A stretch of 64,000 nucleotides of DNA. It comes from Curvularia clavata (Eukaryota). Below are positions 27,857 to 30,438 of the stretch, one piece after another (within the stretch, counting starts at the first letter, position 1; every line of letters starts with the position of its first letter). The stretch lies in NCBI GenBank assembly GCA_023920165.1, contig CP089274.1, positions 5,332,001-5,396,000 on the forward strand, given 5' to 3'. The notes under the pieces are model-generated. The model was not told the origin of the DNA. It searched no databases and worked only from the letters and a program-made list of their open reading frames with translations. The position numbers were made by a program, and so were the translations under genes.

Positions 27857-28222
27857 GGTGGATTTGTGTCTAGTAAGGGCGTAGATGTGGTAGTGATGTT
27901 TACGGTGTTATCAGACGGCGAGGGAATAAAGCGAGTCTAATACGTGGAGGTCAAGACCACAAGCTATGACCAGACCAATAGCGCTAGAGGAGAGGAAAAC
28001 GCAGCAGTAACATGCAGGCAGCCTCCGTAGCTGCAGTCACCATGACAGATCTCAACATGGGACGGAATAAAGCATGCGAACCATAGTCCTTTCCGAAAAT
28101 CCAGTATCACATGTGAAAACTGTTGTACAGGTTCGTTCAATGGCAAAAAAGAATCATTGAAAGGCAGTAAGTAGTGCTACTGCCTGCAAAAGAAGTACGG
28201 AAGTTCTGTACCACAGAACCGC

Positions 28223-28228
28223 AAAAAA
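28223..28228 (-). terminator. Pol III oligo(dT) terminator of tRNA-Pro
   Basis: T6 run beginning 3 nt after the discriminator base on the minus strand. Confidence 0.75.
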
Positions 28229-28230
28229 TG

Positions 28231-28369
28231 GGGTCTTACCGCGACTCGAACGCGGGGCCTCTCGCAAGCAATGCTCGGGAAATCCCTAAGCGAGAATCAT
28301 ACCACTAGACTGTCCAATGTTAGAATTCGAATGTGCTGAATGGTGTGGTGGTTGCTTACCCATAAGACC
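28231..28369 (-). tRNA. tRNA-Pro(AGG), 3 exons (28369-28360, 28309-28284, 28266-28231); 50-nt spliceosomal-type intron plus 17-nt canonical anticodon intron
   Basis: Acceptor stem GGTCTTA/TAAGACC, D arm GTCTAGTGGTATGAT, anticodon stem CTCGC/GCGAG with loop TT-AGG-G/T, T arm CCGCG-TTCGAGT-CGCGG, C discriminator; spliced length 72 nt. Confidence 0.9.
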
Positions 28370-30438
28370 GTTGCTTTGATGAAAGAATGACAAATTTCAA
28401 AAGATATAACCATGTTCAAAAGAAGCAGTACGGTGAGTGCTGAGCAATAGCAAGGATATCTAGCTCTATTGAATCTAGTCATGACACTGAAAGGTGGGGT
28501 TGATACGGCTAAAAGATTTTGTTGGAGCTGAGCTTAGTGGGAGCCACCATTCCTTGCTTGGTAAGATGGCGGCTCAGCTGGAACACTGACGAGTCATTCA
28601 AGGCCACTTACCAAAATAATGCAGAGCTTGAGGCTTTTGAAACGATTGGACAGCTGATAGGAGCATTCGGGGTTGAGGTGATTTTCATAGCGCTCAGGAT
28701 CCAGAGGGTGATGGTGATGGTGAGCACTGTGCTTGCAGATTTTGACATACGATGCATCAGAGATCACGAACTTCTAGTTTTGTCCAGACGTTAAATTCCT
28801 GCTCGACTGAGTTGTATTCTGAACATCCTCTGTAGAAAATATGTAGAAAGTGGGGGTACACTGGAAAGAGAGATAGAACAAGGCCACCGACGCGTTCGTA
28901 TGCTTGCTCCTGAAACAAAACCATTAATAGCTTGTAAAAACACAACTTTACCTACAATTCCATGGTGCCCCTTTTCTGTCCTGTCAGGGTGCACTCACCT
29001 AGAACAGCTCAATTTCCATGTAGAACATGTATCCATTTATCCATCGTGCCTTGTGTGGCCAATGCTCAACCTCAAAACGAATATGCTGACCTTTGGGCTC
29101 AGGATGTGCCTCGGTACAAAAAATCCTCTCGAACCCTTGCGGCCACTCATACCAGAGCAGGCAACAGATCTTTTGCCAATGGCTTGCAGTGTCGACCCAC
29201 CGTGTAATATATCTAGAGAAAAACGGTTTCTACTTCGCACAAGTCCTGTTGATCGCAGTATAGGAACAGGCTAAGATCGACTTCAATGCGCAGAAAATCC
29301 AGCAAAAACCTTCTGATAATATTGGAAGACCACCTTCGAACAATTCAACATCGCGCACCTGGTGCTGCATCATCTTGATAATATCAATCGCATCCATTCT
29401 GGAGATGAGCTCACGAGATGGCCTCGCACGACACAATCCCTTGCGTCACCAAGCACAGAGGGCTGAGGACTTCCTTGCTTAGGCAAGGTTGGTACGCACG
29501 GGAACAACGACAAAACGATATGTCCCAGTCATAATGGCCCCAGAGGCCAAGAAAGTGTGCCCTGACACACCATGCATGCCGAGTTTCCAGCGCCTTGCTA
29601 TGACGATATTGCGCAGAGGCCTGAACTCGGGAAAAGACAGGACCGTGAGGCAGGCTTGCTTCTGGACCACCTCGATATTCGCTATTTGTCGCTTTCTCAT
29701 TAACTCAACGGATGCTCATCACCCGGTGCACTGCTTGTGGTGTATAGAAATGTGACATAATCCAGTTGGGTGTCTAGGGCGCGGATGCCAAGCGTACATA
29801 CTGCGAATAATTGTGCTTCCATTTCGAGGCTGTGTGGATCGTATCACCTAGACATGTCACGGATAGAATAACGTATACAGCAAGACGCCCACCCTTCAGT
29901 CACATGTTACATCGTCACAAGCAAGCTATACGACGATGCAACACGCGCTCGAATCAAAGCGATTACAAGAAAGAGAGGCTGCCGAAATAAAGACGGCGCC
30001 ACTTACGTACCATCATGCACAACACGGTTGAGGCGATCTCCGCAAACTCTTAGGCGCAGCCGTCTCCACCTCCAGCTAACCCCCAATTCCCCAGACACAA
30101 TTCTTCCGCCAATCAAGACCAATCGGAGGCCGAATCATCCTCATTTGCTCTCCGATGAGCACAACGGCCATGCTTTGGTCGGCACGTTCCCGCTAGGCTT
30201 ACGTAGGAAGTATGGCATTTTAACCAATTTAACCAACCAACGAGTGTTTCGATCGCGAACATCAGTGGAGACGCGCCTTGAGCAGGATGCCTTCGTCGAG
30301 CAAGATGTCAAGCATACCGGCTTTTAGTACCGACATGCTCGATTCCTTATAATCGAGCTTTCTTCCTCGCAGGCGTGGTTCAGTAAAGTCGCACAACTGC
30401 ACCAACCGAAGCTTGAGAGAGCTTGCCCGGTCGTCAGG

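Follow-up and report, generated by a model that had tools for sequence, protein, structure and literature searches.

A proline transfer RNA gene with an apparent messenger RNA-type intron beside a canonical tRNA intron in Curvularia clavata

Can the precursor of a single transfer RNA (tRNA) depend on two unrelated splicing systems? The question is raised by a proline tRNA gene with anticodon AGG, tRNA-Pro(AGG), on the minus strand of a stretch of Curvularia clavata DNA (GenBank assembly GCA_023920165.1, contig CP089274.1, positions 5,332,001 to 5,396,000). This whole stretch of 64,000 nucleotides (nt) is hereafter called the window, and positions are given within it. The gene is interrupted twice, by a 50-nt insert in its D stem (intron 1) and by a 17-nt intron next to the anticodon (intron 2). 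From its sequence and from a comparison with related genes we propose, with a probability of about 0.75, that this is a working tRNA gene with two unrelated kinds of intron, in which the spliceosome would remove intron 1 and the tRNA endonuclease would then remove intron 2. The locus belongs to a genome of the filamentous-fungus type. Introns of the messenger RNA (mRNA) type are already known from structural RNA genes; what is unexpected here is the tRNA host and the coexistence with a tRNA-type intron.

Anatomy of the locus and its splice signals

An earlier note on this DNA had described a tRNA gene at 28369-28231 (minus strand) with a 50-nt insert and a 17-nt intron one base 3' of the anticodon, and both the coordinates and the description were confirmed by reading the sequence and by ARAGORN. 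When 28359..28310 alone was excised by script, ARAGORN called a tRNA-Pro(AGG) with a 17-nt intron at 28283..28267, one base 3' of the anticodon; when both inserts were excised in silico, it called a 72-nt tRNA-Pro(AGG) cloverleaf. In the untouched sequence no tRNA was found by ARAGORN or by Rfam at the gathering score, and a permissive Rfam search of 28100-28500 gave no tRNA match. The features of the locus are as follows.

28231..28369, minus strand: entire tRNA-Pro(AGG) gene, 139 nt, comprising exons of 10, 26 and 36 nt plus two introns (ARAGORN after removal of both inserts)
28360..28369, minus strand: exon 1, 10 nt, tRNA positions 1-10 (5' strand of the acceptor stem, U8, G9, G10)
28310..28359, minus strand: intron 1, 50 nt, putatively of the mRNA (spliceosomal) type, with a GTAAGC start, a TTCTAAC branch box and a CAG end
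28284..28309, minus strand: exon 2, 26 nt, positions 11-37 (remainder of the D arm, 5' strand of the anticodon stem, anticodon AGG, G37)
28267..28283, minus strand: intron 2, a canonical tRNA intron of 17 nt between tRNA positions 37 and 38 (37/38; ARAGORN intron call)
28231..28266, minus strand: exon 3, 36 nt, positions 38-73 (3' strand of the anticodon stem, variable loop, T arm with the B box, 3' strand of the acceptor stem, discriminator C)
28223..28228, minus strand: TTTTTT run resembling a terminator of RNA polymerase III (Pol III), beginning 3 nt past the end of the gene
28404..28409, minus strand: TTATAT, TATA-like and a weak candidate for a TFIIIB/TBP site, some 40 nt upstream of exon 1

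Intron 1 falls within the A box and separates G10 from U11, the D stem's first two bases on its 5' strand. Because a G stands at both ends of the insert, a 9/10 register is equally compatible with the tRNA; GT..AG ends are obtained only in the 10/11 register. Intron 2 lies between positions 37 and 38, where canonical introns of the endonuclease type are found, and contains a CCCGAG which, as read from the sequence, is able to pair with the anticodon loop. It is an ordinary tRNA intron, and intron 1, at 10/11, falls outside that class by its position. With long introns allowed, ARAGORN returned a tRNA-Pro(GGG) with a 1798-nt intron at 28230-30120. This call was rejected as false, the real 3' half of the gene having been stitched to an unrelated upstream piece; it illustrates a route by which such split genes may be mis-annotated.

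In fungi, the 5' splice site consensus is GTRNGY, which can pair with U1 and U6, and a branch site CTRAY stands shortly before the 3' splice site. The sequence elements of a U2-type intron were all found in intron 1: a 5' splice site GTAAGC, a branch box TTCTAAC whose A stands 10 nt before the 3' end, a CAG that fits the 3' splice site YAG, and a length of 50 nt, which is inside the range of local mRNA introns. The combination of GTRNG, CTRAY (A 6-25 nt from the end) and terminal AG occurred in 8 of the 127,902 50-mers of the window, counted on both strands, and in 33 of 639,510 in shuffled sequence. The chance of the signals seen in intron 1 is about 5e-5 per fixed 50-mer, or about 1e-4 if the two registers are counted.

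The genome of the window has short introns of the fungal type. A protein search recovered, besides the window's own protein, a single sequence at 30% identity, and a protein atlas gave generic aldo-keto reductase clusters. In the neighbouring ceramidase-like gene, downstream of the tRNA gene, RNA contigs from two studies skip a 51-nt intron at 27785-27735 (GTGAGT..GGCTAAC plus 9 nt ending in CAG) and a second GT-AG intron of 63 nt at 27721-27659; between the two lies a micro-exon of 13 nt (27734-27722, minus strand). Strict intron candidates in the window number 34 and range from 46 to 105 nt (median 64), and the commonest distance from their branch A to the 3' end is 10 nt (9/34), the value of intron 1. 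The signals and length of intron 1 match both these RNA-supported neighbours and the window candidates, and intron 1 is therefore indistinguishable from a local mRNA intron.

Interrupted relatives and selection on the spliced product

Relatives were sought in environmental DNA by one metagenome scan with a pattern of TGG and GTRNG, a spacer of 30-60 nt, then AG and the 20 nt with which exon 2 begins. Fourteen of the 15 loci obtained are tRNA-Pro(AGG) genes interrupted at 10/11, of which 13 are complete and one (L015) ends at a contig edge. The remaining locus, L013, is an ordinary tRNA-Gly(GCC) that fits the pattern by chance and was set aside. After removal of the putative introns, ARAGORN called a 72-nt tRNA-Pro(AGG) in all 14 models (the 13 complete loci and the window); in the three relatives submitted untouched (L001, L003 and L012) it found no tRNA. 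The interrupted genes comprise four types of mature sequence. Their 10/11 introns measure 50-57 nt in the 14 genes, and in all 14 the A of a CTRAY box stands 10-11 nt before the end, a feature not forced by the pattern. These introns are always accompanied by a canonical 37/38 intron of 17-38 nt.

Several relatives have further introns that the pattern did not ask for. A second GT..AG intron is found at 34/35 in L001 and L004 (51 and 52 nt, GTAAGT..CTAAC..YAG), an extra 57-nt intron at 58/59, in the T loop, in L003, L006, L008 and L011 (GTGAGT..GCTAAC..CAG), and an extra 60-nt intron at 55/56, also in the T loop, in L012 (GTAAGT..CAG). All seven of these unforced introns start with GTAAGT or GTGAGT. 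One tRNA thus has what look like mRNA-type introns at four sites across different lineages. Counting all 21 intron instances (17 distinct sequences), 20 have the A of a CTRAY box 10-12 nt from the 3' end, as against 5.7% of the window's 50-mers, and the 3' site is YAG in 19 and AAG in 2 (L003 and L006). Eleven of the genes were aligned, and in their 10/11 introns no columns are invariant other than the initial G-T-A-.-G, the C-T-.-A within the branch box and the closing AG.

Intron 1 of the window is homologous to the 10/11 introns of L001, L002, L004, L005 and L009. When the introns of one site (10/11, 34/35 and so on) were compared with those of another by BLAST, no similarity appeared at expect values (E) of 0.01 or below. 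A short-word BLAST of the 17 introns against the window and the 15 loci (about 100 kb) gave no sign of an introner-like repeat family; outside the tRNA genes the matches were of 11-13 nt only, with E of at least 0.056, save for the truncated homologue L015.

Two observations concern the 34/35 introns themselves. In L001 (307-357) and L004 (1343-1394), on the minus strand of each locus, this intron lies within the anticodon, between A34 and G35, and the 17-nt 37/38 intron follows three bases later; modification of A34 would need prior splicing of the 34/35 intron. In L004, the final approximately 18 nt of the 10/11 intron (1418-1467) and of the 34/35 intron (1343-1394) are alike by eye (CCAT.CTAACAA.T.CCAG), which hints, without support from BLAST at E of 0.01 or below, that one intron seeded the other.

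The exons of these genes bear the marks of selection on a spliced product. The window's type is represented by six loci with three kinds of flank, and in 15/15 pairs there are 0/72 exon differences, with intron 1 identities of 63-92% among the same six loci. Across the four mature types, 17 of the 21 stem pairs are invariant, four show compensatory double changes and none is broken. The compensatory pairs are 5:67, 6:66 and 7:65 of the acceptor stem and one pair of the T stem, so that three of the four link exon 1 with the last exon. Since these acceptor pairs span exon 1 and the last exon, their co-variation makes sense only if the exons are joined in RNA. The predicted spliced product is a cloverleaf with intact stems and the anticodon AGG, as expected of a functional tRNA-Pro(AGG).

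RNA contigs and the transcribing polymerase

Contigs were compared from runs X1 and X5, which come from two studies and are confirmed RNA, and from X10 and X11, which are of low depth and unrecorded kind. Long contigs of X1 and X5 (1418 and 1347 nt, k-mer depth 49 and 26) hold a tRNA-Pro in which exon 1 is joined directly to exon 2. They keep the 17-nt intron, with two base differences from the window, and both of their flanks differ from those of the window; judged by sequence, they represent a paralogous locus. The 30-nt flank consensus of this contig resembles, by eye, the flanks of L001, L004 and L009, all three of which have the 10/11 intron in DNA, and the contig could be the predicted intermediate, with intron 1 removed and intron 2 retained. 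Alternatively, it may derive from a paralogue that lacks the 10/11 intron in DNA, or it may be antisense RNA, because a large open reading frame (ORF) lies upstream of the tRNA on the opposite strand in L009, L001 and L004.

Runs X10 and X11 show a third type of flank. One X11 contig (28224-28408, 5 differences) has a window-like intron and upstream flank, spanning exon 1, the insert and 39 nt upstream. Because this contig includes the insert, the 50-nt insert may not be peculiar to this assembly, although X11 is possibly related to the source of the window and the contig is possibly a chimeric k-mer path. Identical exons are present in at least three loci, the window and at least two more. 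For the gene that follows downstream on the same strand, X1 and X5 contigs end at 28208 and 28216, 15-23 nt past the tRNA gene and just beyond the T run, a weak hint that the mRNA of that gene may start directly behind the tRNA terminator.

The consensus of tRNA genes comprises an A box, TRGYNNARNNG, and a B box, RGTTCRANTCC (PMC7954030). The A box of the present gene is split by intron 1, and the junction, CAG followed by TCTAGTGG, keeps 10 of the 11 consensus letters about 60 nt downstream of the first tRNA base, the terminal AG of the intron restoring the R9-G10 letters. A B-box region can also be read, GTTCGAGTC, which departs from the consensus at either end. A T run of at least 5 follows all 14 genes, the first run starting 3-13 nt downstream, and in the window it is a T6 that starts 3 nt after the gene. 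Runs of T5 or longer occur in 0/21 intron instances versus 7/34 window intron candidates, a weak difference, the introns being related. Taken from the sequences, the oligo-T behind the genes and the T5-free introns favour Pol III. A TATA-like element is seen at -32 to -59 in 14/14 genes, weakly so, given a loose motif and no control set. By analogy with TATA-dependent Pol III genes, which are the basis for this proposal, such elements could place TFIIIB upstream of exon 1.

Two further observations were made upstream of the gene. In genes of the window's type, a short motif containing CATCAA stands just upstream of exon 1, in the window at 28380-28390 and in L001, L004, L009, L002 and L005 at -10 to -25, in flanks that otherwise differ; it could be a start-site or promoter element. 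On the plus strand of the window, at 28368-28450, antisense and beside the 5' end of the tRNA, four weak matches to C/D-box small nucleolar RNA (snoRNA) families of Rfam were found (E 0.68-4.5, far below the gathering score). This stretch offers TGATGA and CTGA boxes together with a terminal stem of 4 bp; no such C/D snoRNA arrangement was seen to precede the homologous genes of the metagenome loci.

Proposed maturation, rival explanations and significance

From these features we infer the acting polymerase, the excision of intron 1 by the spliceosome and the order of the two splicing steps. The gene would most likely be transcribed by Pol III, with initiation aided by the upstream TATA-like element, a help that is proposed because intron 1 sits in the A box, and with transcription stopping at the T6 run. 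The spliceosome would then excise the 50-nt intron 1 in the nucleus, as it does in U6 of fission yeast, which is also a Pol III transcript, and folding of the D stem and the L-shape could only follow this step. The ends would subsequently be matured, and the 17-nt intron excised, by RNase P, RNase Z and the tRNA splicing endonuclease and ligase. Spliceosomal removal as the first step is a reasonable expectation because RNase P and the tRNA endonuclease recognise the folded tRNA body and no D stem can form around an insert of 50 nt. In budding yeast the tRNA endonuclease acts outside the nucleus; if it does so here, the same order would be imposed in space.

The earlier note had held that this precursor needs two different splicing machineries. 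Comparison strongly supports the proposal, in that all spliceosomal signals are present, the position is conserved in four gene types and only the splice signals are constant; the support is comparative, with no contig of X1 or X5 reaching the intron at this locus. Introns in four exon contexts share signals of the spliceosome, no full bulge-helix-bulge is formed in a crude scan and the 37/38 intron is ordinary, which makes two machineries the best reading.

Several points weigh against the pathway proposed here. The GTRNG and AG at 10/11 in the relatives are there by construction, and uninterrupted or otherwise interrupted genes could not surface in the scan. There are near-duplicates among the loci, L007 being equal to L014 and L008 to L011 in all intron sequences, and the 55/56 intron of L012 has no CTRAY box. 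The X1 and X5 contigs leave 28311-28620 uncovered, from intron 1 of this gene through exon 1 into the upstream flank, and since the exons are identical in at least two other loci, mature tRNA is not traceable to this copy. Exon 1 also lies about 60 nt upstream of what remains of the A box, which is farther than is usual in start-site selection by TFIIIC and TFIIIB in yeast, and a Pol III start upstream of exon 1 therefore needs an extra assumption, the TATA-like element.

It is on the question of the polymerase that the proposal meets its main rival, in which the same spliceosomal intron is assumed and the tRNA is carried inside a transcript of RNA polymerase II (Pol II), for example in the leader of the downstream gene on the same strand. 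Intron 1 would then be excised co-transcriptionally, like an intron of a 5' untranslated region, and RNase P and RNase Z would free the tRNA. We consider this unlikely, though it has points in its favour: the A box is broken by intron 1, a TATA-like element stands at about -40, and the window, L009 and L004 each have their next downstream gene on the strand of the tRNA. The long X1 and X5 contigs reach from about 1 kb upstream to 0.3 kb downstream of the paralogous tRNA-Pro and cross its T run; in them exon 1 is joined to exon 2 and the 17-nt intron is still present. A precedent is offered by the tRNA-Sec of Trypanosoma brucei, which is made by Pol II (PMC2943599). Set against this are the oligo-T runs, which lie within 13 nt of all 14 genes and are needless in a Pol II unit, the lack of any intron with T5 or longer, and the downstream-gene contigs, whose ends at 28208 and 28216 fall short of the tRNA. 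The long paralogue contigs may themselves be antisense, given the large upstream ORF on the opposite strand in L009, L001 and L004.

The two other explanations deny a spliceosomal intron altogether, and both appear far less probable. A decaying pseudogene, that is, one of several tRNA-Pro(AGG) copies that received a chance 50-bp insertion and went out of use, would accord with the view that D- and T-arm insertions in eukaryotic tRNA genes are usually met in a single one among many synonymous copies and regarded as pseudogenes (PMC4090602), with the existence of other loci with identical exons and with X1 and X5 contigs that give no sign of expression for this copy. The interruption nevertheless recurs in 14 of the 15 scan loci and in four mature types, the splice signals are kept against a chance of about 5e-5, and the exons are intact, with no divergence at all in the face of intron identities down to 63%. 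Intact stems, compensated at four pairs and broken at none, together with this zero exon divergence, exclude a decaying pseudogene for practical purposes. Slightly more improbable still is an ectopic tRNA-type intron, cut by the tRNA endonuclease by way of a bulge-helix-bulge as in Cyanidioschyzon merolae, nucleomorphs and archaea, with GT..AG being incidental. Ectopic and multiple tRNA introns that dispense with the spliceosome are known in the red alga and in nucleomorphs (PMC4090602, PMC3728597), and a crude scan gives 3-4 of 4 central pairs between the intron start and exon 2. The scan did not find the motif of 3-nt bulges, 4-bp helix and flanking helices, however: the central helix has 3/4 bp in 13/14 genes, the inner helix has 0-1 bp in 14/14 and the full motif never forms, a result to be read with the crudeness of a scan that had no true positive control and in which the 37/38 introns of the same genes also miss the strict motif. 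Moreover, introns at four tRNA positions, each with its own exon context, have in common GT[AG]AG[TC], YAG and, at a fixed distance, a box of the CTAAC type, signals that are read by the spliceosome and not by the endonuclease, and the lengths of 50-60 nt match those of local mRNA introns.

The closest known parallel to a tRNA gene with a spliceosomal intron is U6 small nuclear RNA (snRNA). According to PMC5855946, such introns were first noticed in U6 of Schizosaccharomyces pombe, a Pol III gene from whose transcript the spliceosome excises the intron, and in fungi a U6 gene can have up to four of them. The present genes resemble fungal U6 in being short, non-coding and of the Pol III class, in having canonical 5' splice, branch and 3' splice sites in introns that are otherwise unconserved, and in having several introns per gene at sites that vary with lineage, with an intron on or beside an internal promoter element. 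They differ in that the host is a tRNA and not a component of the spliceosome, so that the explanation of the U6 introns by reverse splicing, which draws on an RNA at the catalytic centre, is not obviously applicable. They differ also in the additional tRNA-type intron, and in that splicing has been demonstrated for S. pombe U6, whereas here it is predicted from the genes. The same source lists spliceosomal introns in the U1, U2 and U5 snRNA genes and in ascomycete ribosomal DNA (rDNA), and tRNA is absent from that list (PMC5855946). These too are introns of the spliceosomal type in fungal structural RNA genes, including transcripts not made by Pol II, but they belong to other classes of RNA, none of which needs a second, protein-only splicing system.

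Among tRNA introns, the canonical nuclear class at 37/38 is processed by the tRNA splicing endonuclease and, in fungi, the ligase Trl1 (PMC10680797, PMC4090602). Intron 2 fits this class in its position, its shortness and its capacity to pair with the anticodon loop. Intron 1, at 10/11 and with GT..CTAAC..AG, is unlike any class of tRNA intron in the review PMC4090602; this review lists introns of the endonuclease type only, and the word stem 'spliceosom' occurs in it 0 times. C. merolae and the nucleomorphs of cryptophytes and chlorarachniophytes offer a likeness: they have nuclear-type tRNA genes that hold two or three introns, some of these in the D or T arm, and standard finders miss such genes. 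According to PMC4090602 and PMC3728597, those introns are of 3-24 nt or form a bulge-helix-bulge and are attributed to the endonuclease, whereas the present ones are of 50-60 nt, have spliceosomal signals and form no full motif. Textbooks treat the classes of intron separately. A paper of 2025 assigns spliceosomal introns to mRNAs and other Pol II transcripts and tRNA introns to endonuclease and ligase, and regards the two types as apparently unrelated (PMC12530127). A full-text literature search, whose coverage left out most subscription journals, brought up no paper in which a tRNA gene is described as having a spliceosomal intron.

If the proposal is correct, tRNA would be added to the few kinds of non-coding RNA whose genes have spliceosomal introns, and would be the second natural case, after U6, of a spliced RNA presumably made by Pol III. 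It would also offer a simple system for the study of intron gain in RNAs away from the spliceosome's active site. A wider reading, which we put forward tentatively and think doubtful as a whole, is that in an ascomycete-like clade tRNA-Pro(AGG) is an obligate client of the spliceosome. All copies would carry an ancient 10/11 intron, a Pol III pre-tRNA would enter the spliceosome, the introns at 34/35, 55/56 and 58/59 would be footprints of reverse splicing, and the fixed order of removal would act as a two-step checkpoint. Were the footprints real, the classical argument made for U6 would widen to an RNA outside the spliceosome.

ARAGORN and Rfam were blind to all such genes tested, and the tRNA gene counts of fungi may therefore be systematically short. 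On the present proposal, the supply of a proline tRNA would be coupled to the capacity of the spliceosome and, if tRNA-Pro(AGG) is indeed an obligate client, the decoding of proline codons would depend on spliceosome activity.

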